Assembly: GCA_964503755.1 (NCBI GenBank)
Contig: CAZDBO010000004.1
Location: forward strand, 14,042 to 78,041
Length of the DNA: 64,000 nt
Source: an uncultured Candidatus Saccharibacteria bacterium
Lineage (GTDB): Bacteria > Patescibacteriota > Dojkabacteria > JAOAGR01
Direction: 5' to 3'
Position numbers and translations under genes: made by a program
Part shown: one piece after another, positions 6,279 to 60,807 of the stretch
How the letters are laid out: each line of letters begins with the position of its first letter
Numbering within the stretch: the stretch's first letter is position 1
The notes under the pieces: model-generated
Told to the model about the DNA's origin: nothing
The model's database searches: none
Seen by the model: only the letters and a program-made list of their open reading frames with translations

Positions 6279-6339
6279 ATTTTATATTGTATTAAATCTG
6301 GATAAATATACAAACATGATATAAGATTATATACTACAA

Positions 6340-8693: not shown

Positions 8694-8701
8694 AAAGCTT
8701 T

Positions 8702-9391: not shown

Positions 9392-9392
9392 T

Positions 9393-11758: not shown

Positions 11759-11835
11759 AAATTGATTTTATACAAGAGAAAAGATTTTTACTACTTAGTT
11801 TGTCATAAGAGATCTAATTCAATAAAATCCTAATT

Positions 11836-12678
11836 ATGAACTTTATATTAAATGGCCAAACGTCATTATATGGAATATTTGGATATCCTGTTAGACATTC
11901 TAAATCTCCAACATTTCAGACATATTTATTTCAAAAGTATGGAATCAATGCAGTATACGTACCTTTTGAGATTCATCCAGATTACATAAAAGACGCCGTA
12001 GATTCTATAAAAATTCTAGGAATAAAGGGACTAAATATAACCGTTCCACATAAAGAAGCTGTTTTAGACTATTTGGATGCCACATCCGATGAAATTAAAC
12101 TAATCAAGTCAGTCAATACTATTAAGAACGAAAACGGAAAACTGATTGGATACAACACAGATTGGTTTGGTTTTTACGAAAGTATAAGAAATAATCAGCT
12201 TTACAATAAAATAAAAACGGTACTGGTTATTGGAGCTGGAGGTAGTACCAGAGCCATCATTTTTGCATTGATTAAATTAGGTGTCAAAAATATTTTACTT
12301 ACAAATAGAACTATTTCAAAAGCTGAAAATATTGCGAAAGATTTTAAAAATCTAGGAAGTCAGATCAGTGTCATTAATTTTAATGAAATCGAAAAATATC
12401 TCTTACATACCGATATGATAATAAATACAACATCAGTTGGATTACACGATGATGATAATGAACTTTTTAATTATGACTCTTTGCAAAAAGCTCACTTTGT
12501 GTTTGAAATAATTTATAAAGACACAAAATTGATTAAAAAAGCAAAGGAAAAAGGTTGTATCTATCAGACAGGCCACGAAATGCTTTTGTACCAAGGAATA
12601 AAAGCCTTTGAAATCTGGACCGGAATATATCCAGATGAAAAAACCATATCAGAAATACGAGAATTAATTATATCCTAA
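11836..12678 (+). CDS. aroE: shikimate dehydrogenase
   Basis: LYGIFGYPVRHSKSP and NxTxPHK motifs, GAGGS NADP site. Confidence 0.8.
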   Translation: MNFILNGQTSLYGIFGYPVRHSKSPTFQTYLFQKYGINAVYVPFEIHPDYIKDAVDSIKILGIKGLNITVPHKEAVLDYLDATSDEIKLIKSVNTIKNENGKLIGYNTDWFGFYESIRNNQLYNKIKTVLVIGAGGSTRAIIFALIKLGVKNILLTNRTISKAENIAKDFKNLGSQISVINFNEIEKYLLHTDMIINTTSVGLHDDDNELFNYDSLQKAHFVFEIIYKDTKLIKKAKEKGCIYQTGHEMLLYQGIKAFEIWTGIYPDEKTISEIRELIIS

Positions 12679-35721: not shown

Positions 35722-35961
35722 AGAAAGTTAAACCGTCAAAACACGGCGACCTGGAGTAAGAATTTCAACTACAGCTTTCAATGTATTATTGGTTAATAAA
35801 GGTTGCTCTAGAAACATCACTTGCCATGATTCTTTATCAGACACAGCAAAATATGATAAATAAAAAAATCCACTAAAAACTGGATGAGGAATAACGTTGA
35901 TTTTTATAGAATTAGTACGTTGGGGTGGTATTCGTTCAACACTAGGAACATAGATTGTATC

Positions 35962-36360
35962 TCATGCGAAGAACGAAATAACTACCAAAGGTACTTTTTT
36001 ATTAAGTTCATCATGGCAATATCGTGCTATAGCATTTTCTAAATTTACTTCTAATGTACTTAAGTCCGAATAATCAAAGTTTGCACCATATAAACAGCCC
36101 CAATAATCTTCTGCTCCCTGAAACAACCTGATATCTACTCGAGGTGGAAATTTCAGATCAATTTCATATTGTCCCTCACTAGTCGGTAAACCTATGAAAT
36201 AAGTTAACATTTTTCTTAATTACGCATTTCTTCTTTCGGATTAGATTGAAGTAAAATAGTCATACCTTGCGATGACATAGAAATTTCGCTTATGGAAATT
36301 CTAAATAAAGAGGTTGGTGGATTATATATCAAGCAACCCGTTACGTGCGAACCTAGTCCA
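35962..36360 (-). pseudogene. Frameshifted gene remnant. A 49-codon open frame (MNGLGSHVTGCLIYNPPTSLF...) is followed, in another frame, by the 82-aa ORF 35962..36210. A degraded NPP-motif (methyltransferase-like) gene is one guess.
   Basis: Manual translation of the minus strand shows two consecutive open frames offset by 1 nt. Confidence 0.3.
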
Positions 36361-40279: not shown

Positions 40280-40571
40280 TTTTGGATTATAGCAAAAAAT
40301 GAAAAATTTAAATTTGCATAGGAATATATAATGTGGTATAATATACTATAGACACAGGTAAGTTTAGAGTTCATCAATAAGTTCGTACTGGCAGTCAATT
40401 ACTAGAAATGCCAGAAACTTTAAAGGAAATAGGACAATCTTTGCATCCTCTAGAAAGATCAGTTATAAATTATTAAGTCCAAAAATCAAATACCATGTAA
40501 TTCGAGTATTATCGGGCAGAGGGGGCATAAGTGGTACCCTTTTAGCAAGACCTATAACGCCGGATCCTGTT

Positions 40572-41036
40572 ATGCGTCAATACGTAAAAAAATTGTTAGG
40601 TAGTCTATTTATGGCAGCCATTGAGCTAGTACCTCAACATTTTTTATTAAAAGAACAAGTTCTCGAAGCAGTAGTTCGGGCTTTAGGTGACTATCCAAGC
40701 TGTGTTGGTGTTAGAATAAACTACAATTTGCGTTCGCTAGGCGTCCCTAGAACACTTGGTGATCTAATGGGTACAATGTCATCACTGGATGAAGAAAAAT
40801 TAAAAATGGCATTATTACAACCTGGACCACATACACAAGCTTTAATAATGGATGGTTATGGTCAAAATGGGGTCCGCATTGATATCACTGGTTTACCTGG
40901 TCCGGATAGTGAAACTCGATTGGTTGTACTCCAATATCTACGTGGTATCGGAATAAAAGGAGGCAGCTGGATACCAATACACAAACCCGAACTGGTACTA
41001 GAAGATCAAGGACTCGTATTGACACCAAAATATTAG
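40572..41036 (+). CDS. Hypothetical protein with non-native composition (Leu/Gly/Val/Pro-rich)
   Basis: ORF only. Confidence 0.35.
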   Translation: MRQYVKKLLGSLFMAAIELVPQHFLLKEQVLEAVVRALGDYPSCVGVRINYNLRSLGVPRTLGDLMGTMSSLDEEKLKMALLQPGPHTQALIMDGYGQNGVRIDITGLPGPDSETRLVVLQYLRGIGIKGGSWIPIHKPELVLEDQGLVLTPKY

Positions 41037-41038
41037 CA

Positions 41039-41251
41039 TTGACAGTAAGATACCGTTATGGCTTTGAAACACTAGTATTCTCTGGATTGGCAACAATACC
41101 CAAAGGTATACCTGTACCAACAGAAGGTATTGATAAATCTGTAACAATTCCTTGGAACAAACTCAAACTGGCAGAACAAATTAAATTTAAAGAAAGACTC
41201 GTTGCGTATAGTGAATGTAATTTGTTGGCACCATCCCCCATCGGTTACTAG
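41039..41251 (+). CDS. Small hypothetical ORF, possibly a gene fragment
   Basis: ORF only. Confidence 0.2.
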   Translation: MTVRYRYGFETLVFSGLATIPKGIPVPTEGIDKSVTIPWNKLKLAEQIKFKERLVAYSECNLLAPSPIGY

Positions 41252-42475
41252 ATTGCTCGGTGCTTAGGGAATTTCCACATGGTGATGGATTTCTTGAAGT
41301 CGGCCAAAAGCCTGAAATAGGTCAGTTTATTCGTCAATATTATTATTTTGCATTACAAGAATACATTTTACATATAAAACCTTGTTCAGAATCTTACGCT
41401 ATAGGGAAAAAGGTACACCGCTCACTAGTAATATGATGTATGGTCCCGATATCGGTATTGTGACGGGCGGTTTAACTTCGGAACATTTGCAAAAGTTATA
41501 TGAATTATATCGAATTAACATACCCGTTATTATTCATCTGTATTAGGTGTACTAGGAGTAAATCCAGAAAATGCTGTAAAAAATCTGGAAAGCTTGATTT
41601 GTAGTCCACCAAGTAATGGTGAACATCTTAATCTTGTACAAATAAAAGGAATACACGAGCTTATTAAATTTTTGACTGGCACAAGATTTCTTCGAATTGA
41701 TTCTTTACCGTTATCTCAATATCCTCGTTTTCTAGAAATTATTTGAACAACTTTGGCTTCTTTGCTTAACCTATTTTCTAATGTGCAAACTGCATTATTG
41801 AGATTACCTATTTTACCTCCACGAGCTAGTGTAAATAATTTTTGAGGCTATGAGAGATTTTGTTAGAGTTTGTTTACCAAATGATTTACTTTCGCCAGAA
41901 TATAAAGCAGATGTATACACTCCAGAACCAAGACAAATAGGTCTACGAATAATTCGTAATAATAAATCATTATAAGATAATCAATGTACCATAGAGTCTT
42001 GATAAAGAAATTTATTAGATAAATTAATATTACACAAATAAAATTTTATTAAACAAATATAATTTTGAAATGAAGTTTTGATATTACTATAATGTGGATA
42101 ATAATTCAAAAAAATACAGTATAGTAATGTTTTTATAAATAATATTTCATTATTCACATAATAGTGCCAATGGATTAGTTTTTAACTTTATTGACTTGTA
42201 TCACTCTACCCTAGTTTATGTTAACCCATACTATAAGTCCAACGGTATCATAAATAGAAACAAAATAATCTGACAGAAGATACTCTAAAGCATCAAGTAA
42301 AACCACAACAAATATAGCAGAAAGACAAGAACAATCAGGATTCATATCGATTCTTGCCAGCATGCGTGCAGGAGTATTGACGATAAAAAGAATATGGCAA
42401 ATAATCTAAAATAGTGTATAAAACTCTTTATATCAAATTATTCTGATTTTTCAAATTTTCTAATATAATACCGAC

Positions 42476-44368
42476 ATGCCTATGACCGGTCACGAACTAA
42501 AACAAAAATTTATATCGTTTTTTGTATCAAAAAATCATGTAGAAATCCCAAATGCCTCACTGATACCAGAAAATGATCCATCAGCACTTTTTACCAATTC
42601 TGGTATGCATCCAATAGTCAGATATCTTATGGGAGAACCTCATCCTATGGGCAAAAGACTTGTTAATTATCAACGTGCTGTCAGAACTGGTGATATAGAA
42701 GATGTAGGCAGTACCAAAAGACACCTTACATTTTTTGAAATGCTTGGTGAATGGTCGCTTGGTGACTATGGCAAAAAAGAATCATTAGAATGGACTTTTG
42801 AGTTTTTGATAGATGTATTGAAATTAGATCCCAAAAGACTCCACGCTACAGTCTTTAGAGGCAATGAAAAAGTGCCAGCTGATGAAGAATCTATAGAAAT
42901 TTGGAAAGAAATCTTTAAAAAACATGGTATCGAACCTACGATTGGTGATAAATTTGAAGATAATGGCGATTCTCCAAGAATAATTAGACTCACAGAAAAT
43001 GATAATTTTTGGCCAAAAGGCAGAGTAAAAGGTCCATGTGGTCCTTGTAGCGAAGTTTATTATGATCTAAAGGCTGGTGAGAATGCAGATGAGAGATACT
43101 TCGAAGTAGTTAATAACGTATTTATGACTTTATATCAAGATGAAGAAGGAAATTTCACTGAATTAAAACAAAAAAATGTAGATGTAGGTTGGGGATTTGA
43201 CAGACTTTTGATGCTTTTGCAAAACTTGGACTCAGATGGTAATCTAGATCCCAAAGCAACCGTTTTTGAAACAGATTCATTTGCAGATGCTAAAAAGTAC
43301 CTAATACAGATAACAAATTCCGACAATAGTAGTTATTTCTCTGACAAGGAATATCAAAAATCGATCCGTGTGATATTGGATCACATACGTGCATCGGTGA
43401 TGATCATAGGTGATGGTATTTTGCCATCAAATAAAGATCAAGGATATGTACTTCGTAGACTGATAAGACGAAGCATGACCTATGGATATAGTTATTTGTC
43501 AAACACTATAGAACCATATCTTCAGATTGCAAACATATTTATTGATCATCTATCAAAGGATAAATGGTATACATTTTTAATTGATAAAAGAGACAATATC
43601 ATAAATACTTTATCTGATGAACTACAAAAATTCTCTAAAATATTAAAAACAGGGATTAGTGAACTGTCAAAAGTAAAAGATAATCAAATCAGCGGTGAGT
43701 TGGCATTTAGATTAAAAGAAGCTCATGGTATACCACTCGAAATTACAGAATTAATAGCTAAATCTCAAGGTAAGACTGTCGATACTGAAAAATTTGAAGA
43801 ACTGATGAAAAAGCACAGGGAAAAATCGAAAACGGCCGGTGAGAAAAAATTCGTAGGTGGACTTGGCGGTTATAGTGAAAAAGAAATCATGTATCATACC
43901 TGTGCACATCTACTACTTGCTGGGTTACAAAAATTATTTGGCAAGGATATCCATCAAAAAGGACAAAATATCACACCTGAGAGATTAAGATATGATTTTA
44001 ATTTTACTTCACAATTTACATCGGAAGAGCAAAAAAAATTAGAAGATTGGATAAATGAAAGAATAAAAGAAAATCTAAAGGTCGAATTTGTGGAAATAGA
44101 ATATCAAGATGCACTGAGACTTGGTGTAGAGGGTGTTTTCCATAATAAATATCAGCAGTATTCAAAAGCAAAGGTATATGGTATTTTCCCAGCTGAATAT
44201 GAAATGTCTGAATTGATCAAAATTGGTGACACATCAAAATTTGTGTCTCTCGAATTCTGTGGTGGTCCTCATGTATCAAATACAAATGAAATAAGAGGAA
44301 GACTAAAAATACAAAAAGTAGAAAATGTCGGTGCAGGGATAAAAAGAATCCGAGCTGTATTAGAATAA
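42476..44368 (+). CDS. alaS: Alanine--tRNA ligase, short form (catalytic, tRNA-binding and editing domains; no C-Ala domain)
   Basis: FTNSGM class II motif, WPKGRVKGPCGPCSE, editing-domain HxxxH and CGGPHV motifs, 630 aa. Confidence 0.8.
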   Translation: MPMTGHELKQKFISFFVSKNHVEIPNASLIPENDPSALFTNSGMHPIVRYLMGEPHPMGKRLVNYQRAVRTGDIEDVGSTKRHLTFFEMLGEWSLGDYGKKESLEWTFEFLIDVLKLDPKRLHATVFRGNEKVPADEESIEIWKEIFKKHGIEPTIGDKFEDNGDSPRIIRLTENDNFWPKGRVKGPCGPCSEVYYDLKAGENADERYFEVVNNVFMTLYQDEEGNFTELKQKNVDVGWGFDRLLMLLQNLDSDGNLDPKATVFETDSFADAKKYLIQITNSDNSSYFSDKEYQKSIRVILDHIRASVMIIGDGILPSNKDQGYVLRRLIRRSMTYGYSYLSNTIEPYLQIANIFIDHLSKDKWYTFLIDKRDNIINTLSDELQKFSKILKTGISELSKVKDNQISGELAFRLKEAHGIPLEITELIAKSQGKTVDTEKFEELMKKHREKSKTAGEKKFVGGLGGYSEKEIMYHTCAHLLLAGLQKLFGKDIHQKGQNITPERLRYDFNFTSQFTSEEQKKLEDWINERIKENLKVEFVEIEYQDALRLGVEGVFHNKYQQYSKAKVYGIFPAEYEMSELIKIGDTSKFVSLEFCGGPHVSNTNEIRGRLKIQKVENVGAGIKRIRAVLE

Positions 44369-44456
44369 AAGATAGTATTTGTGATTTGTTCACTTTTTAC
44401 ACATTCAGAAAAAATAAGAATGTAAAAAAATATCCTTAATAAACATGTAGTCATAT

Positions 44457-44919
44457 AACCACCTGGTAAACCAGGAGAGGTTACAGACACCTCTGTTCTA
44501 TTGGTAACCAAACGCATCAGATATTTATCAAAAAACTTAGAAAAACACAAGTGACCCCACGGTTTACCGTGGGGTTAAAAGATAACAAAATGTCAATTTA
44601 ACATTTATTTAATTCCAACTATGTAATAAAACTCATAAACACACTTGTAACAAACTATTGATTTTCTATCTATTAAAAAATGATATTATTTATTCTTAAG
44701 TATAATACACCCTGGTGAACCAGTGGATTACAAATACATTTATTCTCTACTCTCTACTAATTAAAAAACACTTGATATTTATTAAAAACTCAAAAAGTGA
44801 TCCCATGGTTTACCATGGGGTCAAAAAATTCCCAAAACCTATTTAATAAAGAATTGTAATCAATAATACGATTGAAACGACTCAGTTATAACTCCATGGT
44901 TTACCACGTAGTTCTAATT
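44457..44919. repeat. Cluster of five related GC-rich palindromic hairpins (core CCnnGGTWWACCnnGG) in the convergent alaS/ileS intergenic region. Copies lie at about 44457-44485, 44550-44581, 44709-44733, 44797-44828 and 44891-44919.
   Basis: Copies read directly: gtgaccccacggtttaccgtggggtt, gtgatcccatggtttaccatggggtc, cacctggtaaaccaggag, ccctggtgaaccagtgg, ctccatggtttaccacg. Confidence 0.6.
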
Positions 44920-47835
44920 TCACAAACTTTCCATTCTTACTTGTACTGTATGATCATCAACTTCAATAGAAAAACTACCAGCATCCAAATTTGTCATGAC
45001 AATCTCTTTTATAAATACCTCAGCTTTTAATTTATCTGTGAACTCATGTACCAATGCTTTCACAACATCCGAATCTGTATCTAAAAAGATTTTTATCATT
45101 TGTCCCATTTGCATACCATTTTGCTTCCGTAATACCTGTAATTCTCGCTTTAATTCGGCATATAGTCCTTCTTTTCTAAGTTCATCATTAATATCAGTAT
45201 CCAAATATACAACACAGTAATCATTTTCTGTCGATGGCATATTTTGAATTTCGTGATTCTCAACTCTTACTTCTTTGACATTTACTTCATCTTTTACAAC
45301 TTCAAGATATTCCTGACCTAGTGTTCTATCAGATTTGAATACTACTACCAACCTGGACAGAGGCTGTTTTACTTTTATACCATTTTCCGAACGTATAAAA
45401 AGACCAAAAGTACAAATATCTCGTGTCATATCCATATTTTCTATAAGACTAGAGTCATAAGCATCAAAATCAGGATAATCTTCCATATGAATAGATTCTT
45501 TAGCATCCGCGATAAATGGTCTTACAATATTTTGATACATATATTCAGGCAAAAATGGGGCAAATGGTGCTAGCAAAAGAATACCTTTTGTAAATACATA
45601 ATACAAAGTTTCTAAAGCGTCTTTTTCTCCATTAGCAAACCTATCTCTACTTCGTCTAATAAACCATTTTGAAATATCTAGGAAGAACGCCTTCACAGTT
45701 TCCATAGACTTTTGGATATCATAATTATCCATATATTTTGTAACCTCTATTGCAGTCTGTTTTAATCTCTCTACAACCCATCTATCTAATATATTGTATT
45801 TGGATTTTAATTCATAATTTTTATAAAAATTTGGCTCAGGTGTCCAATTATTCAATTCTGCATAAGTTGTAAGATAAACATAAATATTCCAAAAAGGAAT
45901 TAAAAATTCTTGCTGAATAGTACGTGCAGTTTTATCAGAGATAGTTGCATCTTCGCATCTCACAATAGGAGTTGAGAAGAAATTTATACGCATAGTATCA
46001 CCACCATAGTTTTGTATCATTACAAGTGGATCTGTATAGTTTTTTTTGCTTTTACTCAATTTTTGTCCGTTATCATCTAACACTAATCCATTTACGACAA
46101 CATTCTCGAAAGCTTCTTTTCCAAACAAAGCAGTACCTATAGCATGTAGTGTATAAAACCAGCCTCTTGTCTGATCTACTCCTTCGGAGATAAACTGGGC
46201 CGGATATTTTTGCTCAAATTTTTCTTTATTTTCAAACGGATAATGGAACCTAGCAAATGGCATTGCGCCAGAGTCATACCATACATCCAATACGTCAGGT
46301 ATACGAGTATACGTTTCACCTTCGTATTCAAAAGTTATCTCGTCTATGTATGGTCTATGTGGATCATCGATTCTTTTACCAGATAATTTCTCTAACTCCT
46401 CATAAGATCCTATTACCATTACTTTTCCTGATGGACTTTTCCATATCGGTAGCGGAGTACCCCAATATCTAAATCTTGATATAGACCAATCTTTTATTTC
46501 AGCCAACCAATTTCCAAATCTACCTTCTTTGATATGTTCAGGTATCCAATTTATTCTTCTATTGTTTTCTACCAACTTATCACGTATCTTACTGACCGCT
46601 ATATACCACGAAGTAATAGGTTTGTAGATCAAGGGTGTGTTCGTGCGCCAACAAATAGGCATATCGTGTTCATAATCTTCATATTTGAAAAGTAAATTTT
46701 TATTCTTTAAATATTCAACAATCTTGGGATTCGCATCACGATAATTCATACCTGCAAAATCCTTTATTACATCCAAAAAGTCACCTTGATCATCCAACAC
46801 ATCAATTGATTTTATTCCAATTTGATTGAAAATCTCATTATCCTCTGCACCGTAAGGCGCTAAATGTACAACGCCAGTTCCAGATTCTGTAGTCACATGA
46901 AAGCCATAAACAACTTTGAAACAATTTTCCCTACCTATGAAATAATCAAATAATGGTTCATATTCCAGGTCAACAAGAGTTTCAGGACTAACATCAGCAT
47001 CCAATACATGATATTTTCGATCAGCAAAAACTTTTTCTATCAATTCATTTGCTACATAAAAATTTTCCCCGTCAGAATGAACTTTTGAATATGTGATATT
47101 TTCTCCAACAGCCAATGCAAAATTTGTCGGCAATGTCCAGGGTGTAGTAGTCCAAGCAAGTATGTATTCGTTATCTCGGTCTTTAATTTTGAATTTAACA
47201 GTTACAGCTGGATCAACTACTGGTTTATATCCACCAAGTGCCACCTCTGCATTAGAAAGTACAGTACCACCACGCGTAGAATATGGAACAACCTTAAATC
47301 CTTCATACAGCAAACCCTTATTATAAAGCTCTTTCAAAGACCACCAAATAGACTCAATATAACCTTTATCCATTGTTGCATATTCTTCTCTATCATTAGT
47401 CAGACGTCCCATTTTTTTCTCTAGCTCAACAATACCAGCCCTATACTTTAGTACCAAATTTCTACAATCTTCATTGAATTTTGCTACACCGTATCTTTCA
47501 ATATCCTTTTTTTCTTTGAATTGATGAATTTTCTCTACTTCTATTTCTACAGGTAAACCTTGACAATCCCATCCCAAGGATCTTTCAACCTTGTATCCTT
47601 TCATCGTCCAATATCTAGGGATTAAGTCTTTAATAGCAAATGTAAGCATATGACCATGATGTGGATCACCGTTTGCCGTTATTGGCCCATCATAAAATGT
47701 TTTTACTTTATCATTTGGTCTTACATCTATTGATTTGTTTAATATATCGTTTTCTTCCCAAAATTTTAGTATTTCTTGTTCTATTTGATAAAAATTTACT
47801 TTTTGTTTTTCTCTCTTTATTTTTTTATTTGACAT
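44920..47835 (-). CDS. ileS: isoleucine--tRNA ligase
   Basis: HMGH and KMSKS (KLSKSKKN) class I motifs, 971 aa. Confidence 0.95.
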   Translation of the reverse strand: MSNKKIKREKQKVNFYQIEQEILKFWEENDILNKSIDVRPNDKVKTFYDGPITANGDPHHGHMLTFAIKDLIPRYWTMKGYKVERSLGWDCQGLPVEIEVEKIHQFKEKKDIERYGVAKFNEDCRNLVLKYRAGIVELEKKMGRLTNDREEYATMDKGYIESIWWSLKELYNKGLLYEGFKVVPYSTRGGTVLSNAEVALGGYKPVVDPAVTVKFKIKDRDNEYILAWTTTPWTLPTNFALAVGENITYSKVHSDGENFYVANELIEKVFADRKYHVLDADVSPETLVDLEYEPLFDYFIGRENCFKVVYGFHVTTESGTGVVHLAPYGAEDNEIFNQIGIKSIDVLDDQGDFLDVIKDFAGMNYRDANPKIVEYLKNKNLLFKYEDYEHDMPICWRTNTPLIYKPITSWYIAVSKIRDKLVENNRRINWIPEHIKEGRFGNWLAEIKDWSISRFRYWGTPLPIWKSPSGKVMVIGSYEELEKLSGKRIDDPHRPYIDEITFEYEGETYTRIPDVLDVWYDSGAMPFARFHYPFENKEKFEQKYPAQFISEGVDQTRGWFYTLHAIGTALFGKEAFENVVVNGLVLDDNGQKLSKSKKNYTDPLVMIQNYGGDTMRINFFSTPIVRCEDATISDKTARTIQQEFLIPFWNIYVYLTTYAELNNWTPEPNFYKNYELKSKYNILDRWVVERLKQTAIEVTKYMDNYDIQKSMETVKAFFLDISKWFIRRSRDRFANGEKDALETLYYVFTKGILLLAPFAPFLPEYMYQNIVRPFIADAKESIHMEDYPDFDAYDSSLIENMDMTRDICTFGLFIRSENGIKVKQPLSRLVVVFKSDRTLGQEYLEVVKDEVNVKEVRVENHEIQNMPSTENDYCVVYLDTDINDELRKEGLYAELKRELQVLRKQNGMQMGQMIKIFLDTDSDVVKALVHEFTDKLKAEVFIKEIVMTNLDAGSFSIEVDDHTVQVRMESL

Positions 47836-47860
47836 AGTTTTTTTATTAATAAAACTAAAT

Positions 47861-47894
47861 AAAAAAGGCTCCCTGAAAAATTCAGGGAGCCTTT
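47861..47894 (-). terminator. Strong intrinsic terminator on the minus strand (GGCTCCCTGAA stem, AAA loop, then a U-run), 25 nt upstream of the ileS start codon
   Basis: Perfect 11-bp stem read directly. Confidence 0.7.
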
Positions 47895-48081
47895 AATGCT
47901 CGTTACCGTCCTGGTTCCTTGTATGGTCAAAACTTTAACAATGCCATACAAGCTTTCATAGTCCGTTTCGTGAACCACACGTTGGGTTTTACTGACATGA
48001 ATAAATCATGCTTTCTTCCCAATCCCTCGCTGCTGATAACAGCTAATAACGGGAATTTAAGCTTAAATGATTGTAAATGAT
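47895..48081 (-). promoter_or_regulatory. GC-elevated leader between rplY and ileS ending in the terminator above. Candidate T-box or attenuator leader for ileS.
   Basis: A terminator abutting the start codon. A possible specifier-like UUAUCAG (AUC, Ile) sits in a CUG...CAG hairpin. The segment GGAACCAGGACGGTAACG resembles the T-box consensus only partially. Confidence 0.3.
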
Positions 48082-48738
48082 TTACTCTTTATCGTCAACT
48101 TCTTCCTCTTTATCTGATTGTTGCGATGCTAAAATCTCTTGTGTAACAGCATTTACATCTATTGTTTCCTCAGTAGTAGATGCGGACGTTGTAGCAATTG
48201 TTAATTCTTTATCTTCTTCACGAACAAGTGAAATGCCTTCTGGAAGTTGTATATCACCAACACTAATACTCTCTCCTGCTCGTAGATTTTTTACGTCAAC
48301 GACAATCTCATGAGGGATATTTGCAGGAAGACCTCTAACTTCGATTTCATCTGTTACTTGTATCACAATCAAACCTTGTTCTTTTACAGCGATAGAAATT
48401 TCCTCATTTATAAGCACTACAGGCACCTTTGTTGTTATTTCCTCATCCATCTTTACCTCACGAAATGTAACATGAATATAATCTCTAGTCACCGGATCAA
48501 TCTGAACCTCATCAATAAATACATTGTGTACTGTATCATTCAACTTCAATTTTATAATAGTTGTATGTCCCGCCTCACGAAATAATGAATCAAATTGTTT
48601 TTTATCGACTACAGTGTTAAAATTACCTTTATATCCATAAATGGATGAAGGCAATTTACCTTGTCTTCTTAATGATTTATTTTTTTTACCCAATACTTCT
48701 CTTAAGGTTGCTTGTAAAGTTAATTTTGATGTTGACAT
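48082..48738 (-). CDS. rplY: 50S ribosomal protein L25 / general stress protein Ctc, with an acidic C-terminal tail
   Basis: L25/Ctc N-terminal beta-barrel region, 218 aa. Confidence 0.75.
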   Translation of the reverse strand: MSTSKLTLQATLREVLGKKNKSLRRQGKLPSSIYGYKGNFNTVVDKKQFDSLFREAGHTTIIKLKLNDTVHNVFIDEVQIDPVTRDYIHVTFREVKMDEEITTKVPVVLINEEISIAVKEQGLIVIQVTDEIEVRGLPANIPHEIVVDVKNLRAGESISVGDIQLPEGISLVREEDKELTIATTSASTTEETIDVNAVTQEILASQQSDKEEEVDDKE

Positions 48739-49187
48739 AACTTTTTTGATATTATCCTCACCGCAGAAAATCTGCGATTACTTTAAATATCAGCAAATGA
48801 TAACATAAAAATTTTAATAATCAATAAGTATTAAATCTTGATAACCAATTAATTATAAAAATACCAAATACAATTCGCCCATTATAACTTTTAGTAAAAT
48901 TAGGTTAATCTAAAACTTTATCTTGAATCAAGAATACACATCAAAAATAGATATTTGTTTTATAAAATAAAATTCGAAGAATTAAAACGCAAGAATTGAA
49001 GAATTATTGATTTTTGTTGAAAAATTATATTTATGTTACTCAAAATCATGAAAATCATGAAAATCAACAAAATTTATTATAATTAAGATATACATAAATT
49101 TCTTTATTTATTCAGGCCGATATAACATCAGAAATTTGACCATAGAAAGAAAAGTTCTTTATCTTTTCTCTTATACAGTGTCGTTTT

Positions 49188-49261
49188 TGGCTTCCCCGCT
49201 AGGATTCGAACCTAGACCAGAGCGTTAACAGCGCACTGTGCTACCATTACACCACAGGGAA
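49188..49261 (-). tRNA. tRNA-Asn (anticodon GTT)
   Basis: Hand-folded. U1-A72 acceptor as in E. coli tRNA-Asn, D-arm GTGT-AATGGTA-GCAC, anticodon loop CTGTTAA, T-arm CTAGG-TTCGAAT-CCTAG, discriminator G, encoded CCA. Confidence 0.8.
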
Positions 49262-49765
49262 CCGACCAATGTATTCTAGCAATATATCAATATCATGTCA
49301 AAATAGAAACACAATAAACTTAATATTCACATATAGATACATTTAGTATAATACTTTTCGAAAACTTAAAATTTATTTATGTAAAATATCTATACAACAT
49401 AATTTTTTATAATTCAAAAAATCTAAAAAACCCGTTGAGCCTCATCCAGCTAACTGACTAGAACAATCCTGTCCTACTCTACAACAAACTCCCTGGCCTT
49501 GTGCATTTCTACCAGCACAATATTCTCACCCACCACAAAATCTGTCATGACATATTTGATTACATACAGTTTCTGCACTTGTACCTGGTGGTGCACACTT
49601 GTTATTGCCATCTTCACATTGTATTGGTTGACAACGATTTGACGGACATTGAGCGTAACTTATTTGATCACATGGCAATGTATCTATTGGATTGGGACTT
49701 GTGTTAGATGATGGGGGTGTTTGAGTTGGTTGAGGATTTTGAGAAGGTGGTCTATTACTACCACT

Positions 49766-50221
49766 TCAATCACTACCACCACTACCTCCTGTTGGATTTG
49801 GCAATCGAGTTGGTATCCTACTTGGATCTTGAGGCATTGAACAGTTTGTAGCAATACAATTATTTTGTAATGCTATATTTGCCGCTTGATATGATTGTGC
49901 CCATGCATGTACCTGTTGATTAATATTTGAACAGTCTTCTCTATCACATATACTACGCACTGAATTTTCACAACCCCTTCTAGCTTCATTAGTATTATCA
50001 TTACATTTTTGAGCCAAACATTGATTTATACATGTAGTATATTCTCTATATTTATTTTTCCATTCTCTTCTAATGTTTTCTACTTCAACATATTCATTAG
50101 AACATAATACATAATAATTTGCGGCCGTATCCTCCGGATTTACATTCCTATTCATTATCGTATACGCCAGATAACCCGCAACACCCAAAAGTAAAAATAT
50201 AAATACAAAAATTATTATCAA
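49766..50221 (-). CDS. Cys-rich secreted or membrane-anchored protein (N-terminal TM, 12 Cys). The coding signal continues past the TGA for another ~107 codons containing a second in-frame TGA, down to about 49442.
   Basis: Manual translation beyond the stop: SGSNRPPSQNPQPTQTPPSS...CDQISYAQCPSNRCQPIQCEDGNNKCAPPGTSAETVCNQICHDRFCGG*EYCAGRNAQGQGVCCRVGQDCSSQLAG*. Confidence 0.5.
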   Translation of the reverse strand: MIIIFVFIFLLLGVAGYLAYTIMNRNVNPEDTAANYYVLCSNEYVEVENIRREWKNKYREYTTCINQCLAQKCNDNTNEARRGCENSVRSICDREDCSNINQQVHAWAQSYQAANIALQNNCIATNCSMPQDPSRIPTRLPNPTGGSGGSD

Positions 50222-50361
50222 TAAAACCCTTCTTCGATCCCTCGCGGATCAAACAAACTTAACCTTTTATTAAACATACCTGTACCTGTACCTATAACTA
50301 TATTTATGCTAGCAAAATGTATTAGTATTTACAATCTAAGCGATAAATAAAATAATGGAAT

Positions 50362-50958
50362 ATGAAAATCATACCAGCTTTACTTGAGGACAATAAACAA
50401 GAATTAATATTAAAAATCCATGAATTATCAAAATATTTTGATCATATTCATATTGATCTTATTACAAATCATTACAAATATTTGCACGATACAATTACAT
50501 TAAACGAAATTTCTGCCGCTGTAGAAAAATTCCCGAATATAAAATTTGACCTCCATATCATGTCTTCACACTATGGTGAATGCTTAGTCAACAATGAATT
50601 CACACAATATTTTGACAAAATTTTTGTGCATATAGAAAATAAGATCAAAATAGATATTCAAAAATATTCAAATATAGTTTATGCATTTGATCTACATACA
50701 CATATATTTGATTACAAACAAATTATAGAATCAGCTGACGAAATATTACTTATGTCAGTGCCAGCTGGCAAACAGGGACAGAAATTTAACATTGTTACAT
50801 ATGAAAAAATAAGAAAAATTGTGCTTTTGAATCCCGAAATAAAAATATATTTAGACGGAGGTATAAAAATGCAAATTTATGAAAAACTAAAAAATAACAA
50901 GAATATAAAAAGTTTAATAGTAGGTAGTCATATCGATGATTTTATAAATAAAACATGA
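50362..50958 (+). CDS. Ribulose-phosphate 3-epimerase-like protein. Divergent; some catalytic residues are not evident.
   Basis: LLMSVPAGKQGQ and IYLDGGI resemble the Rpe LLMSVNPGFGGQ and IEVDGGI. Confidence 0.45.
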   Translation: MKIIPALLEDNKQELILKIHELSKYFDHIHIDLITNHYKYLHDTITLNEISAAVEKFPNIKFDLHIMSSHYGECLVNNEFTQYFDKIFVHIENKIKIDIQKYSNIVYAFDLHTHIFDYKQIIESADEILLMSVPAGKQGQKFNIVTYEKIRKIVLLNPEIKIYLDGGIKMQIYEKLKNNKNIKSLIVGSHIDDFINKT

Positions 50959-50969
50959 AATAATTTAAT

Positions 50970-52877
50970 GTGAATCTTAAAGATATCAAAGGAATAAGCA
51001 CAAGAATAGAAAAATTATTAAGAAAATTAGAAATTTATACCATCGAAGATTTACTCTTGCATCCACCAATAAGGTATATTGACAGAAGAAGATACTTACC
51101 AATTTCAGACATTTTTCTAACACACGATGAAAATTGGCATTCCACAGGAAAAATAAAGGACGTAGATAAAGTACGTACAAAAAGAGGTAAAAATTTAATC
51201 ACCGCAATTATCGAGGATAATACATCATATATCAAAATTATTTGGTTTAATAGCGATTATTTGCTACCAATACTTCTTAGCAGTAAATACATCGCTTTTT
51301 CAGGCATTGTATACGACAAATCAATATACAATCCTAAATTTGTCATATTAGAAAATCTTGAAGAAATCCCGAAAAAGCTGGCAAAAATAGAAGTAAAATA
51401 TCCAGAAACAGCGGGTATAAATTCTGCTACTATTTCTAAAATCATAAAAAATGGACTAGATGTATACGAAATCAAAGAAACTTTACCAAGTGAAATATTG
51501 GAAAAAGAAAATTTAGTATCAAAAAGACTAGCAATAAAATACCTACACTTTCCAGAAAACGAAATAAATATCAAAAAGGCAAAAGAAAGACTAGCTTTTG
51601 AAGAAATTTATACACTTATTCAAAAAATTAAAGAAAATAAAATTATCATAGTTTCACACGAATCATTTGCTATCAAAATCGATCAAAATTTAAACCAAAA
51701 CATAATAGAAACTTTAGATTATGAGCTTACGATGTCACAAAAAGAAGCTATACAAGAAATTTTTTCTGACATCTCAAAAAACAAGCCTATGTATAGACTA
51801 ATAAATGGTGATGTAGGCTCTGGAAAAACAATTCTAGCAATACTGGCTGCATCACAGGTATCACGAAATAACTTAATGACTCTAGTTTTAGCCCCAACAG
51901 AAATTTTAGCTAATCAACATTTTGAATCTTTCAATAAAATTCTATCAAAATATGATATACCTATAATACTTTGGACAAGTTCGATAAAGCACAAGAATAT
52001 TCAACCCAATTCCATAGTTATAGGAACACACGCTCTGATTCATCACACCCAAAATTGGAACAATGTAGGTCTCGTAATCATAGATGAGCAACACAAATTT
52101 GGAGTCAAACAAAGAGAAATTCTCACAACTTTGCAAAATGAAAACAAAATACCCCATTCATTATCAATGTCCGCAACACCTATACCGCGCACTGTTGCTC
52201 TGACATTTTTTGGTGATATAGGTGTAAGCTTTATAGAAAAACCAAAAAAAAGAAAAAAAATTGTTACTAGAATAATTACAAATGCGGATATTGAAAACAA
52301 AATGATTGAATGGATAAAAAATAAAATTATTCTCGAAAATGTGCAAGTGTACGTAGTGTGTCCTTTGATAGAAGAAACCTCTAAATCAGATCTCAAATCA
52401 GTCCAGAAAATTTATGAGCATTACAGATTGATATTTGGAGAGGACAAAGTCGGATTATTACATGGTAAGATGAAGGCAAAAGAAAAAGATGATGTGATAA
52501 AAAATTTTATAGAAAGAAAATTTCACATTTTAGTTAGCACAACTGTTATAGAAGTAGGCATCAATAATCCCAATGCAACAATAATGATAATACAAAGTGC
52601 AGAAAGATTTGGCCTTGCACAACTCCATCAAATACGCGGCCGTGTGGGACGCGGTAGTGATCAATCTTATTGCTTTCTAATACCAACAAATTATGAAATA
52701 AATAAAAGATTAGAATTCTTTGAAAAAACAGAAAATGGCTATGAACTGGCAGAATATGATCTAATGTTACGAGGTCCTGGAGAAGTTTATGGTACTTTAC
52801 AATCTGGCATACCAAACTTAAAATTTGCAAATATTTTAGATAAAAATTTAATAAATAAAGTTAAAAAGTATATATAG
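50970..52877 (+). CDS. recG: ATP-dependent DNA helicase RecG
   Basis: Wedge/OB region plus SF2 helicase motifs (GDVGSGKT, DEQHKFG, QLHQIRGRVGRG). Confidence 0.85.
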   Translation: MNLKDIKGISTRIEKLLRKLEIYTIEDLLLHPPIRYIDRRRYLPISDIFLTHDENWHSTGKIKDVDKVRTKRGKNLITAIIEDNTSYIKIIWFNSDYLLPILLSSKYIAFSGIVYDKSIYNPKFVILENLEEIPKKLAKIEVKYPETAGINSATISKIIKNGLDVYEIKETLPSEILEKENLVSKRLAIKYLHFPENEINIKKAKERLAFEEIYTLIQKIKENKIIIVSHESFAIKIDQNLNQNIIETLDYELTMSQKEAIQEIFSDISKNKPMYRLINGDVGSGKTILAILAASQVSRNNLMTLVLAPTEILANQHFESFNKILSKYDIPIILWTSSIKHKNIQPNSIVIGTHALIHHTQNWNNVGLVIIDEQHKFGVKQREILTTLQNENKIPHSLSMSATPIPRTVALTFFGDIGVSFIEKPKKRKKIVTRIITNADIENKMIEWIKNKIILENVQVYVVCPLIEETSKSDLKSVQKIYEHYRLIFGEDKVGLLHGKMKAKEKDDVIKNFIERKFHILVSTTVIEVGINNPNATIMIIQSAERFGLAQLHQIRGRVGRGSDQSYCFLIPTNYEINKRLEFFEKTENGYELAEYDLMLRGPGEVYGTLQSGIPNLKFANILDKNLINKVKKYI

Positions 52878-52900: not shown

Positions 52901-53887
52901 ATGTTATAATACACTATCTTAAAGTCTAGTCAAAAATCAAAAAATCTCGTTATAGTAACTTTATTCGCTTTATCAGTTGTAATAACTAGTGTAATAATAT
53001 TTTCATACTCTCCTGATGAAACAATCAGAGCAAACAATATAATTACCCAGATACAAAAAAGATTAAACCAAAATTCTGCTGAAACCTCACAAGAAACTAA
53101 AATCGAAGAAAAACCTTCTAATAACTGAACTAACAATTCAAATTCACTATCACAATCTAGTAAATTAGCAAACAACACACCAACGCCCAGTCCTACAACG
53201 TCAACTATACAAACAACTCTCCAATCTACCAATCCAACTTCAATACCAACACCAAATCCAACAACATCAGTACAATCTCAAACTACACCGACCCCAACCA
53301 ATCCTAGTGTAACTCCAACAAAAATACCAAATGTTGTTGTAAATTATCCTGTTACACCTCCTTCGGACATTAGAGATATCCCAGTCTACAAAAGAAGTTT
53401 TCGAAAACTTGGTGGAAAAACAGCTTGCGAAATGTTTACTAATGAGATGGCGAATAAAGTATTTAATCAGCCATCACGTGCCTTAAGAGAGGGTGAAGAG
53501 TATACCATCAGTGAAGTTTCTGATGAATTTGCAGGTCGTGATAGAACTGATGTCCGTGCATATCGTACAACTTCTGATGATAAGTTTATTTACTTTAATG
53601 TATTTGAAACCACCTCTGAAGAAAATTATTTTTACGTATTAGAAATTTATAGAAAACAGTTGGAAGAAAGAGGAATTGACACTAAAGATTTCTACAAAAA
53701 TTATGGCGGTGGAGAAACAATGGGAGATATTTTAGCAATGAAACAATATATGGATATGGAAAATTTTTCTGAAGCAATTGTGGTTCTAAATTACGGACAA
53801 TATGTAATGTATGTAAACACAAATTTGAACTCTAAAGAAAAAATAATCATGCTTACAGAGATGATGAAAGAACAAGGAATAAATTAG
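52901..53887 (+). pseudogene. Disrupted gene for a secreted PT-linker protein. The ATG at 52901 overlaps a TATAAT box. In-frame TAA at codon 3 and TGA at 53126. A signal-anchor and Thr/Pro-rich linker precede the intact 151-aa 3' ORF.
   Basis: Manual translation: ML*YTILKSSQKSKNLVIVTLFALSVVITSVIIFSY...KPSNN*TNNSN...TPTPSPTTST... in frame with the 53432 ORF. Confidence 0.45.
53432..53887 (+). CDS. Intact 3' ORF of the locus above (151 aa). Could still be expressed from an internal start.
   Basis: ORF track. Confidence 0.35.
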   Translation: MFTNEMANKVFNQPSRALREGEEYTISEVSDEFAGRDRTDVRAYRTTSDDKFIYFNVFETTSEENYFYVLEIYRKQLEERGIDTKDFYKNYGGGETMGDILAMKQYMDMENFSEAIVVLNYGQYVMYVNTNLNSKEKIIMLTEMMKEQGIN

Positions 53888-55066: not shown

Positions 55067-55120
55067 GATAAGTTTTATTAATCTATATTAGAATATCTGT
55101 AAAAGTTTGTAAAATACATT

Positions 55121-55999
55121 TCATAATCTTTCCAAAGCAGCAATTCTATCCTCAATAGGTGGGTGAGTCGAAAAGAGATTTACAAAAAAAGAATGAGTTT
55201 TTTTCAAAGGAAAATCTATAAACATATGTGCATTCCCCTCAGTGGCATTCATAACTGGCAAATCATCCGCCTGTAGTTTTCTTAGAGCACTTATCAATCC
55301 TTGAGGATAGCGTGTTATCTCTACTGCAGTAAAGTCAGCAAGATATTCTCTACGACGAGAAATAGCTAGTTGTATCAATGTAGCAATAATAGGGCTTAAT
55401 ATTGCCACTAATATTCCTATAAATATCAACCACGGTGGTGTATCATCATCACTACCACTTATCACACGAATAAAAAAATCAGCTATATAAGTTATAGAGC
55501 TTGCCATTACCGAAACAATTAACATAAGTCTTATATCGAAATTTTTAATATGAGCTAACTCATGAGCGATTACTCCTTCTAGTTCTTGTTGATTCATACG
55601 TTCATAAAGTCCCTGAGTTATAGCAACATGCGAATTTTGTGGATTTCTGCCAGTAGCAAAGGCATTCATCGCTGGATCTGGAATTATATGAATCCTAGGC
55701 TTTGGTATGCCCGCCTTAATAGATAATATCTCAACAGTTTTATTTAAATGCTCAAATTGTGGATTGTCTGTAACATCCATAGCTCCAGTAGAAAATAGAA
55801 CAAATCTATCACCATAAAAATAAGTGATAAGAGAAATTAATACTGATATACCGAACGATATAAAACTAACAAAAACCGATGAAATTATATCTTGTGATAC
55901 CAAGTAAGATAAGAACCAACTAACTAATATGGCAAATAACACAAATCCCAAAAGTAAAAATACAGACAAGAAACGATTTTTGTCTATCTGTGAGTACAT
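55121..55999 (-). CDS. htpX: Zinc metalloprotease HtpX (M48)
   Basis: HELAHIKNFD HExxH motif, four TM segments, downstream of lemA. Confidence 0.85.
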   Translation of the reverse strand: MYSQIDKNRFLSVFLLLGFVLFAILVSWFLSYLVSQDIISSVFVSFISFGISVLISLITYFYGDRFVLFSTGAMDVTDNPQFEHLNKTVEILSIKAGIPKPRIHIIPDPAMNAFATGRNPQNSHVAITQGLYERMNQQELEGVIAHELAHIKNFDIRLMLIVSVMASSITYIADFFIRVISGSDDDTPPWLIFIGILVAILSPIIATLIQLAISRRREYLADFTAVEITRYPQGLISALRKLQADDLPVMNATEGNAHMFIDFPLKKTHSFFVNLFSTHPPIEDRIAALERL

Positions 56000-58468: not shown

Positions 58469-59255
58469 ATTAAGCATTAAATTATTCAAATTAGAAAACT
58501 TTTAATTTTATTTTAGTTAACTGTCACATTTTTTTATTTTTTATTGAGATTATCCACTCATTGCTTTAATTAACTATGATAAATAAACTTATAAACTAAG
58601 GTATTAAGTTTCCTATGGCCATCGATAATAAGTTTAATATGTTTAAACTAAACTGATCGACAAAAATCCGTATAACTTCATGCGTGACCATAGCTTTGGC
58701 TACCAAACCTAATACATCAATCCATTTAGATAGTGGCTGACCTCGATCTTTATTTTTCTAACAAACAAAATCCCGTGAATAAGCAAATAAAGAAGATGCA
58801 ATCATTGGAATCATAGGAAATATGGGTTGATTCATATTAGCCCAGGCCAATAAAGAAACTAGACCATATAAGCATCCTTTTGTAAACGGTTCAATTAATT
58901 TCTGATTAATAGAGGGGCAGCAACATACCGCGTAAAATAATATACACAATTATTTAATAACTCAAAAGGTCGTTTGTGTATCTGTTGTACTACTTCTTTA
59001 TTTATAATTATATCATTTTATTATACACTCCAAAATAAATTTTTTACACTCAAATGTTCGTAATGCCCTCCAGTTCGAAAATATCATGTATATCAAAAAC
59101 AGATATATATCTTCATGGATTGAATCCTAGTTTGTGCAAAGAATTCCTATAATAGGCTTATTTTACTTTTGAATTTAAATTACTCAAAATATAGTAGACT
59201 ATAAAAATGATTTATATAAGTTACGATAACCAACTATCCCCATCAAAAATAATTT

Positions 59256-59458
59256 ATAATTTTCCTATACTTTGAATATTTTCTTACCCAATACCCAGGA
59301 AGAATTTTTAGTAAACTAATCAATATCCTGTTTTTTAAACCGAAAGTTTTAATAACATTACCTTTTACATAAGCTTGATAAATAAACTCTGCCACTTCTC
59401 TAGGATCAGCCGCATTTTGATGAGTACTACCTCCGGCATTTTCAAAAAAATTATCTAT
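59256..59458 (-). pseudogene. Start-less 3' fragment of an SDR gene, duplicated from or paralogous to the 3' end of 60061..60807. About 78 bp are near-identical and the rest about 70% identical. It encodes ...NFFENAGGSTHQNAADPREVAEF... with no start codon.
   Basis: Direct alignment of 59262-59458 with 60068-60262. Confidence 0.55.
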
Positions 59459-59669
59459 TGTCTTTCTGTTATTTGGTATTATTCAGAAACATAAAAGGTA
59501 AGTTTTTTAATATATTCAAACGCACAAATTAATTATAAAGCTAGCTCATAAACATTTTTTAAAAATATCTTAAAAAGCTGAAAATGCAAGCAAATACATA
59601 TTTAAATTAGTTATGTTATTAAACTATGATATTGACAAATTGACTAATACTTTATACAATTAATTTGCT

Positions 59670-59879
59670 ATGGCAAACGGTGAACAAAATCCAAATCAAG
59701 ATCCAAATTCAGACGAAAAAGCACGAAGGTTAGCTCAAGAAATATATGAACGTACAGGGAAACCGTATGATGGTACCACTACCCCGCTCGATCCATATAG
59801 AGAGAAAGTTATTGAAATATTACAAAAGCTAGACGAAGAAGAAAAAAATAGACAAAACAGCGGAAATAAAGGCCAATAA
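59670..59879 (+). CDS. Small hydrophilic protein (69 aa). Unknown.
   Basis: ORF only. Confidence 0.25.
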   Translation: MANGEQNPNQDPNSDEKARRLAQEIYERTGKPYDGTTTPLDPYREKVIEILQKLDEEEKNRQNSGNKGQ

Positions 59880-60060
59880 GACGAAGGCCAAGAAGACGAT
59901 GGTAAAAATCCAAATAAGAAATGATTTATTAAGAATTATATTTAGATATTGAGTTTGTGCTTTTATTATTTTTCCGTTTTTGTTTGTTTTGTTTGTTTTC
60001 TTTTGGTTGTTTGATGATTTATCATATTTTAACAAAAATTAATATAATCAAGATGATTTG

Positions 60061-60807
60061 TTATTTTTTTCTATACTTCGAATATTTTCTTACCAAAAAC
60101 TCCGGCAGAATTTTTAATAAATTAGCCAAGATTTTGTTCCTTAGACCAAAAATTTTTATCACATCTCTTTTTTTATAAACTTTATATACAAACTCTGCCA
60201 CTTCTCTGGGATCAGCCGCATTTTGATGAGTACTACCTCCGGCATTTTCAAAAAAATTAGTTGAAGTATCACCAGGGCACACACATATAATACGATGCTT
60301 TTCTTCATTTTCCATTGCAACTGCCTGAGAAAAACTATTTACATAAGCTTTTGATGCAAAATAAACTGAACTCCCTACACCAGGATAAAAACCTGCAATT
60401 GATGAAATATTTATCACTGTCTTATTTTGTCCTTTTGATTTTTTAAGAAAATGATGCGTAAGTTTCGTTAAGGCAATAATATTTACATCAATGATATTCA
60501 AATTTCTAATAATATCGGTTGCATAAAAACTACCATAAAGTCCAACACCTGCATTGTTTATAATTACATCTATGTTTTCTTTTTCTAAAAACAATATTAG
60601 ATTTGACAAATCATTGCTATTTGTAAGATCACACACTAAAAATTCAAATTTTGTCTTATATATAGACCCCCAAGCATCACGCATCATCTCAAGTATTTCT
60701 ACATTACGTGCAACACCAATTACATCAAATCCATTTTCTGCAAACACATGACAAAGCTGATATCCGATTCCACTAGATGCACCTGTTATCAAAACGCTTT
60801 TAGCCAT
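60061..60807 (-). CDS. short-chain dehydrogenase/reductase (SDR)
   Basis: TGASSGIG cofactor motif, YxxxK (YFASK). Confidence 0.8.
   Translation of the reverse strand: MAKSVLITGASSGIGYQLCHVFAENGFDVIGVARNVEILEMMRDAWGSIYKTKFEFLVCDLTNSNDLSNLILFLEKENIDVIINNAGVGLYGSFYATDIIRNLNIIDVNIIALTKLTHHFLKKSKGQNKTVINISSIAGFYPGVGSSVYFASKAYVNSFSQAVAMENEEKHRIICVCPGDTSTNFFENAGGSTHQNAADPREVAEFVYKVYKKRDVIKIFGLRNKILANLLKILPEFLVRKYSKYRKK

Follow-up and report, generated by a model that had tools for sequence, protein, structure and literature searches.

Bacterial selenoprotein genes such as fdhF and grdB carry a UGA codon with an adjacent SECIS element, and selenocysteine (Sec) normally alternates with cysteine among homologs. 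In code 25 the same codon is read as glycine, as described for the Gracilibacteria and Absconditabacteria (Campbell 2013; Rinke 2013; Ivanova 2014, as summarised in PMC13293708). A 2026 review restricts this reassignment to the Gracilibacteria/JAEDAM01 lineage (PMC13293708), and no paper linking Dojkabacteria to stop-codon recoding was found in the literature. The DNA analysed here, a stretch of 64,000 nucleotides from an uncultured member of the Dojkabacteria (the window), contains a minus-strand gene for a Cys-rich protein in which the reading frame is interrupted by TGA codons. Comparison with related genomes indicated that positions 49442-50277 most likely hold what is left of a lineage-specific gene, inactivated not long ago, that encoded a large cell-envelope protein, a reading given a probability of roughly 85%. 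The UGAs are best read as nonsense codons that terminate translation, neither selenocysteine nor glycine. Three candidates had been put forward in a preliminary description of the sequence, the title and score of which leaned towards selenocysteine and readthrough; the recent nonsense pseudogene is the candidate that survived, and selenocysteine the one that was given up.

Translation of the minus strand over 49400-50260 gave the in-frame sequence ...PTGGSGGSD, stop, SGSNRPP...HDRFCGG, stop, EYCAGRNAQGQGVCCRVGQDCSSQLAG, stop, GSTGFLDFLNYKKL, which is identical to the text from which it had been concluded that the frame continues past the first TGA. The coordinates of the locus are collected in Table 1. 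The stretches after TGA1 and TGA2, previously counted as 85 and 22 codons, contain 79 and 27, and the 12 cysteines reported ahead of the second TGA are all present but are split 8 + 4 across it. After TGA3 the frame runs for 22 codons before reaching TAA. The 151-codon ORF corresponds to approximately residues 21-195 of a 1140-aa ortholog and was called by NCBI as a 129-aa protein starting at ATG 50155, while the ancestral ATG opens an ORF of 19 codons and no more in the window copy.

The coding character that had been noted downstream of TGA1 is real and beyond chance, as judged from codon-position GC and codon log-odds. The GC content at codon positions 1/2/3 was 0.48/0.60/0.14 for segment 2 and 0.59/0.59/0.15 for segment 3, compared to 0.40/0.42/0.17 for the upstream ORF and 0.43/0.32/0.22 for the pooled long ORFs of the window. 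The periodicity of both segments is in phase with the upstream ORF and their codon log-odds are positive in that frame; the log-odds of the 22-codon tail past TGA3 are near zero.

Table 1. Features of the interrupted gene and its downstream flank, in window coordinates
Feature	Position	Strand	Remarks
Ancestral ATG start codon (ATGTTTAATAAA, MFNK...)	50275..50277	-	Kept in orthologs; ATGTTTAATAAA spans 50277-50266
1-nt deletion site	50245..50246	-	From DNA alignments and three-frame translation against orthologs
151-codon ORF, TTG start 50221	49769..50221	-	TM helix and N-terminal Cys-containing domain
TGA1	49766..49768	-	In Gly/Ser/Asn low-complexity linker; opposite a gap in the ortholog alignment
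Segment 2, 79 codons	49529..49765	-	Pro/Gln-rich linker, then first 8 Cys of the Cys-rich domain
TGA2	49526..49528	-	Opposite GGT (Gly) in L002, L003 and L008
Segment 3, 27 codons	49445..49525	-	Last 4 Cys of the Cys-rich domain (EYCAG...GVCCRV.QDCSSQLAG)
TGA3	49442..49444	-	Best placed as an additional codon among the Gly codons that open the Gly-rich linker
Last four ortholog-homologous codons, GGC TCA ACG GGT (against G-N-T-G)	49425..49441	-	Followed by the left deletion edge
tRNA-Asn(GTT)	49188..49261	-	With conserved promoter 49273-49301, the downstream edge of the syntenic block

Homologs were obtained solely from an exhaustive HMMER protein search, which revealed one true homologous family. 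It includes a 1140-aa protein of related Candidatus Dojkabacteria (P0001) that is 64% identical, with an alignment of its residues 181-300 that spans both internal TGAs. A second protein of 1140 aa (P0007) belongs to the same family, the entry P0002 is the window's own N-terminal ORF as called by NCBI on an 88.5-kb contig, and no homolog was found by this search as a stand-alone short protein. Two weak matches (P0003 and P0004) are repetitive proteins aligned over short stretches and were judged to be compositional. Word-index protein searches with the read-through protein, the ortholog N-terminus and the ORF at 35728-36219 gave zero matches, the index seeming to miss proteins of NCBI or Logan origin. 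Pfam and NCBIfam scans of both halves of the protein assigned no family. A metagenome scan with the Cys-domain alignment detected no relative, and one with the Rpe alignment detected just two fragments of 35% identity and no closer relative. By exact look-up the 151-aa product, the 129-aa product and the leuA protein were not on record; an exact look-up of the end of the window returned a 964-bp contig from the sibling run SRR11582148 and nothing else. The 1140-aa envelope protein is previously undescribed and genus-restricted in Dojkabacteria.

The ortholog consists of an N-terminal TM anchor, a Cys-containing N domain, a linker, the 12-Cys domain and a Gly-rich linker, beyond which lie ~800 aa of further extracellular domains and a C-terminal tail. 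In P0001 this C-terminus reads KNLPNTNSVINSLFWIAVLLFTGTGIYWYMNRREFGLDIRVRKRKNL, with LPNTN followed by ~23 hydrophobic residues and a basic end. The tail appears to resemble a sortase sorting signal, a likeness in sequence features only, and Pfam gave no family for it at E<=0.1. The gene that encodes P0001 (L002) has zero in-frame stops under code 11 and lies divergent beside rpe-recG, in the same arrangement as in the window, and a 97%-identical copy is present in the MAG "Candidatus Dojkabacteria bacterium SKW36" (L003), by which the window organism is assigned to the Dojkabacteria (CPR). An ENA contig (L008) contains the full order of rpe, the gene, a spacer of ~0.8 kb, tRNA-Asn and L25, and the window flanks match it. 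The intact full-length orthologs (P0001 and P0007) are located at the position, between rpe-recG and tRNA-Asn/L25, that the interrupted gene occupies in the window, and intact copies were found on five Logan contigs.

When compared with the ortholog, the window copy has a 1-nt deletion, three in-frame TGAs and a deletion of ~3.15 kb. In DNA alignments the window has GATCC-GCG where L002, L003 and L008 have GATCCTAGA. This deletion parts the conserved ATG from the main ORF, with homology shifting from frame 2 (LFDP) to frame 1 (DRRRVLLIIIF). Read from the ancestral ATG, the window copy gives MFNKRLSLFDPRGIEEGFY followed by three stops and L002 and L008 give MFNKQKLDLFDPRKDRRRMILIIIFVF..., the ancestral start and the basic n-region ahead of the TM helix being lost through the frameshift. 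The position of TGA2 is unambiguous, as it stands codon for codon at the glycine of FCSV-G-EYC in all three orthologous loci. Alignment at TGA3 matched 10/15 nt when a gap was allowed and 6/18 when ungapped. Homology stops four codons past TGA3 and restarts at the conserved tRNA-Asn promoter; the region of L008 from ~5290 to ~8450, comprising codons ~305-1140 and the spacer, has no window counterpart. The lost 3' part includes the C-terminal LPNTN/hydrophobic/basic tail, and tblastn found no remainder of the gene elsewhere in the 64-kb window. Parsimony, applied here without an outgroup, favours loss of the 3' 3 kb in the window lineage over a gain in its relatives.

Further decay was observed nearby. 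The next non-housekeeping gene, at 52910-53887, is the ortholog of a membrane-anchored protein of 310-330 aa, intact in both L002 and L003; the window copy has lost the start codon (GTG to ATC) and contains an in-frame TGA. At 59234-59506 there is a second, degraded copy of the C-terminus of an SDR gene. Two related assemblies carry frameshifts in the ortholog of the interrupted gene, a change of T7 to T6 in SKW36 and of GGG to GG in the ENA contig, the latter inferred from protein sequences at 3.4x coverage. These independent breaks suggest that the gene is dispensable and, because it is frameshifted in two assemblies and intact in others, it looks dispensable or variably expressed across populations. 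A symmetric scan of the window for stop-interrupted coding-like ORFs, in which TAA and TAG cases arising from adjacent genes and antisense frames were set aside, gave three TGA loci (49766, 53126 and 35962) and none with TAA or TAG. As a pattern, three nonsense codons, all of them TGA, and no frameshift in 780 nt are somewhat unusual.

The preliminary description had held TGA to be a genuine stop elsewhere in the window and global code 25 or code 4 to be unlikely, and both statements were borne out. Among 48 genes TGA is the terminator of 12, TAA of 31 and TAG of 5, and some of the TGA ends match those of orthologs; the disuse of UGA as a terminator that marks code 25 is not seen. Reading with code 11 yielded dense full-length genes, including ileS (971 aa), uvrA (989 aa), recG (635 aa), alaS, ftsA/Z and a shikimate cluster, and Pfam profiles were matched nearly end to end by code-11 ORFs, none of which is split by TGA. 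No conserved gene contains an in-frame TGA, so the widespread UGA at Gly positions typical of code 25 is absent, and GGN accounts for every one of the 890 Gly codons counted in 40 reference genes. In-frame TGA is confined to three non-conserved loci of the window. The coordinates place aroB and aroA in an ATGA stop/start overlap, and the ftsQ-like gene and ftsA share a frame and are parted by TGA and two codons, so that TGA as a sense codon would fuse both. In both the window and a relative, the last residue of the M48 peptidase and of rpe is the same and a TGA stop follows it; a further gene that has TAA as its stop in the window has TGA in that relative. The idea that translation continues beyond the M48 TGA was rejected, since the conservation there is of the nucleotides, as in a promoter, with no codon-wise pattern. 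The tRNAs of the window are tRNA-Arg(TCT) and tRNA-Asn(GTT) only, and prfB is absent from these 64 kb, which carries no information on the code. Global code 4 or 25 is excluded because TGA terminates genes and never interrupts conserved ones.

Segments 2 and 3 together share 86% amino acid identity with the ortholog, with a pN of 0.10, a pS of 0.76 (saturated) and all 12 Cys retained; by comparison, identity to the relative is ~86% for RecG and 63% for Rpe. In the N-terminal ORF the TM part has a pN of 0.04 and the N domain a pN/pS of 0.44. Because segments 2 and 3 are strongly constrained and keep all 12 Cys, the decay must be recent. The pN and pS values are pairwise against a divergent comparator, with neither a closer relative nor an outgroup, and do not separate the window branch. 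A short neutral period is invisible in pairwise pN with a comparator this divergent, and the values can be called compatible with recent inactivation and nothing stronger. A rough Poisson estimate indicates that ~0.03 substitutions per site would fit the three stops, the retained Cys and the few indels.

The proposed course of events in the window lineage is that a deletion of ~3.15 kb would have taken everything past the 12-Cys domain, that a 1-nt deletion would have uncoupled the ORF from its start codon and that three TGA codons would have arisen in frame. The lesions themselves, the synteny and the role of TGA as a terminator were observed directly; the order and age of the lesions are inferred, as is the absence of translation downstream. 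The remaining possible product would be at most a membrane-anchored N-terminal fragment of 129-151 aa, started at TTG 50221 or ATG 50155. That the frame and codon periodicity are preserved and pN is low would reflect decay that is recent when set against the deep split separating the window and comparator lineages.

The fragment could itself be a shortened functional gene, with a TM-anchored N-terminal domain of 129-151 aa that ends legitimately at TGA1 and a relic of 110 codons downstream, and this is the alternative that survives best, although it is unlikely. The ORF is intact and includes a TM helix, the TM part is highly conserved, an SD-like GAAGAAGGG is located 5 nt upstream of TTG 50221, and NCBI annotates the 129-aa protein. 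Against this, the frameshift removed the ancestral start and the basic n-region that precede the TM helix, the N domain is fast-evolving, and the homologs recovered by the exhaustive search are never stand-alone short proteins.

A very improbable reading is that UGA is translated at least sometimes, either as Gly by a code-25-like tRNA-Gly(UCA) or by leaky near-cognate readthrough, in which case a TM-anchored protein with the 12-Cys domain would still be made and still be selected. The placement of UGA2 opposite a conserved Gly and of UGA1 and UGA3 in Gly-rich linkers is the pattern expected of code 25, and the organism lies within the CPR, where code 25 arose (PMC13293708). The low pN of segments 2 and 3 against saturated pS, the retention of every Cys, zero frameshifts downstream of 50221 and the restriction of interruptions in the coding-like ORFs of the window to TGA would also agree with it. 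In a simple mutation model of this gene the probability that a random nonsense change is GGA to TGA was ~0.05, and the probability of TGA per nonsense hit was 0.29-0.40; the earlier argument that TGA codons, in place of TAA, speak against decay is thereby weak but not empty. Set against decoding are the 12 of 48 genes ended by TGA, with termination residues as in orthologs and including the coupled aroB/aroA pair, the fusion of the ftsQ-like gene with ftsA that readthrough would cause, and the zero of 890 Gly codons in reference genes that are TGA. A firm alignment to Gly is available for UGA2 alone, translation through three leaky stops in series would leave a negligible yield, and the 5' frameshift and 3.15-kb deletion of the same gene would go unexplained. 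According to the literature, the Gracilibacteria/JAEDAM01 lineage is the only one with UGA=Gly (PMC13293708). Acquisition of the gene from a code-25 donor by horizontal transfer was rejected, because the ortholog is syntenic and TGA-free. It is similarly improbable that this Dojkabacteria lineage tolerates or decodes UGA usefully, through an independent or incipient code-25-like state or a weak RF2. If UGA were decoded or leaky, the TGA-interrupted envelope genes would be partly functional, which would explain the TGA-only interruptions and the constrained 12-Cys domain; stop-codon reassignment would then reach a second CPR lineage, and an intermediate state would have been captured in which UGA is both stop and sense codon.

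An artefact of sequencing, assembly or strain consensus, with sense codons in the true genome, is less probable again. The DNA comes from a contig assembled from a metagenome, the Logan contigs are interrupted inside the gene, at 50203-50210, and related assemblies have homopolymer frameshifts, one of them at just 3.4x coverage. Two independent Logan contigs (run SRR11582145) nevertheless match the window at 100% identity, one over 40591-50210 and the other over 50203-51380, covering all three TGAs and the frameshift, and the Logan contig L004 spans the 1-nt deletion site, also with 100% identity. Because of this identity, neither the stops nor the 5' frameshift is a peculiarity of a single assembly, and three substitutions with a 3.15-kb deletion are atypical of assembly error.

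The weakest candidate, that one or both internal UGAs encode selenocysteine in a C-G-G-U redox motif with SECIS hairpins downstream, can be set aside because UGA2, the only firmly alignable UGA, stands opposite Gly (GGT), not Cys or UGA, in three orthologous loci whose full Cys pattern omits that site, and the folding downstream is ordinary. The UGAs do lie in frame in a Cys-rich extracellular domain, C-G-G precedes UGA2, and the small hairpins described 3' of UGA1 and UGA2 exist; they are not SECIS-like. Their folding energies were -7.6 and -6.6 kcal/mol, the latter after UGA2, compared to a mean of -6.7 kcal/mol (sd 3.4) for 347 windows of 60 nt inside genes, and the shuffle z-scores after the three UGAs were -1.74, 0.05 and -0.33. 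The stem after UGA2 (TTGTGC...GCACAA) is formed by the Y-C-A...A-Q codons and is also found in L002, where the codon is GGT. Rfam, with its SECIS families included, gave no match downstream of the UGAs at E<=10, and no tRNA-Sec, selA, selB or selD was detected within the 64-kb window.

A pseudogene is in itself of minor import, and the value of the locus is as a caution that young nonsense mutations can mimic recoding while the coding signal is kept; the caution extends to in-frame UGAs even when they occur in a Gly-rich or CxxU-like context. Some populations keep the 1140-aa gene intact and in others it has been broken independently, a hint that a surface structure of an episymbiotic CPR bacterium is dispensable or variably expressed.

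When the locus is compared with known systems, it shares with bacterial selenoprotein genes a UGA near Cys and small downstream hairpins; it differs in the Gly of its orthologs, in a structure that is neither significant nor UGA-specific and in the lack of Sec machinery in the window. The end of the ortholog may resemble that of LPXTG-type sortase-anchored proteins, as it has a hydrophobic stretch and a basic tail after a motif, but the motif is LPNTN and not LPXTG, there is no Pfam anchor match, and the window copy has lost this C-terminal end. With phase-variable (contingency) surface-protein genes that contain homopolymer tracts it has in common a lineage-specific surface gene that is frameshifted in T7 and G3 runs in related populations, a likeness that comes from frameshifts and not from on/off polymorphism; unlike those genes, the tracts here are short and the window copy is irreversibly deleted. 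The resemblance to code 25 is that a CPR organism has UGAs in frame within Gly-rich sequence and that a conserved Gly faces one of them, whereas UGA in the window is a regular terminator and is absent from conserved genes, Dojkabacteria lie outside the recoded clade, and the gene has unrelated disabling lesions. Like the pseudogenes of reduced or host-dependent bacterial genomes, the gene differs from an intact syntenic ortholog by several independent lesions and has decayed neighbours; what distinguishes it from them is that the decay is very young, with the frame, periodicity and Cys codons intact and every nonsense codon a TGA.

The second damaged envelope gene in the window lies 2.7 kb away from the Cys-rich remnant and corresponds to a membrane-anchored protein that is intact in related genomes (see table). 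The start codon of this gene was gone, GTG having been replaced by ATC immediately 3' of a TATAAT box, and an in-frame TGA was located at 53126–53128, past the TM segment. The sole ORF left is 151 aa in length and begins at the ATG at 53432. A further coding-like stretch was interrupted by a single in-frame TGA at 35962–35964 (...VVISFFA*DTIYV...), and searches with this stretch matched neither a homolog nor a family. Interrupted coding-like ORFs were found at three loci in the window, with TGA as the interrupting codon in all three and TAA or TAG in none.

Coordinates of features in the window, and of frameshifts in related assemblies
Feature	Position	Strand	Remarks
Shikimate/aromatic cluster, near-complete, with leuA	889–12678		aroK, aroB, aroA, aroD, aroC, tyrA-like prephenate dehydrogenase, aroE
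Large repeat protein, 954 aa	2629–5493	-	three strong DUF285 repeats, E=4.6e-112
Coding-like stretch, 163 codons	35728–36219	-	GC123 0.46/0.35/0.20
sufC-alaS interval, about 2.2 kb	40280–42475		higher GC (0.36), doubtful ORFs only
Ortholog of membrane-anchored protein	52910–53887	+	protein intact, 310–330 aa, in L002 (relative's contig) and L003 (MAG SKW36)
55-nt spacer 3' of M48 peptidase TGA	55067–55123	-	L002 counterpart 5141–5200
Degraded duplicate, last ~65 codons of short-chain dehydrogenase gene (NFFENAGGSTHQNAADPREVAEF...)	59234–59506	-	parent gene 60061–60807
Ortholog (1140 aa) frameshift, T7 to T6, TM-coding region	L003 10085–10091		MAG SKW36
Ortholog (1140 aa) frameshift, GGG to GG	L008 about 4760–4790		ENA contig, 3.4x coverage

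The 1140-aa ortholog of the Cys-rich remnant was intact on five Logan contigs and frameshifted in two related assemblies, each at a different homopolymer. Phase variation could account for these frameshifts, as could recurrent loss or errors due to low coverage. Both Logan contigs over the remnant locus terminate within 50203–50210 (L001 at 50210, L004 at 50203), in a T-rich, TM-coding portion of the gene, and the T-tract frameshift of SKW36 falls in the same gene region. Strain heterogeneity may be present at this position.

The dehydrogenase fragment sits in a 1.6-kb stretch (58469–60060) without an intact long ORF. The sufC-alaS interval gave no Rfam match at E<=1 and its ORF at 40572–41036 no Pfam match; the interval may consist of decayed genes or an undescribed RNA.

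The spacer following the M48 peptidase gene was more conserved between lineages than the adjoining coding sequence. The spacer contains TTTACA-N17-TAATAT; it is probably a conserved promoter of the downstream gene and not a translated region.

The DUF285 family ('Mycoplasma protein of unknown function') is named after Mycoplasma and is found here in a Dojkabacteria genome. CPR bacteria are usually described as being without amino-acid biosynthesis, and the shikimate/aromatic cluster with leuA represents a biosynthetic capacity that is notable in a CPR bacterium.
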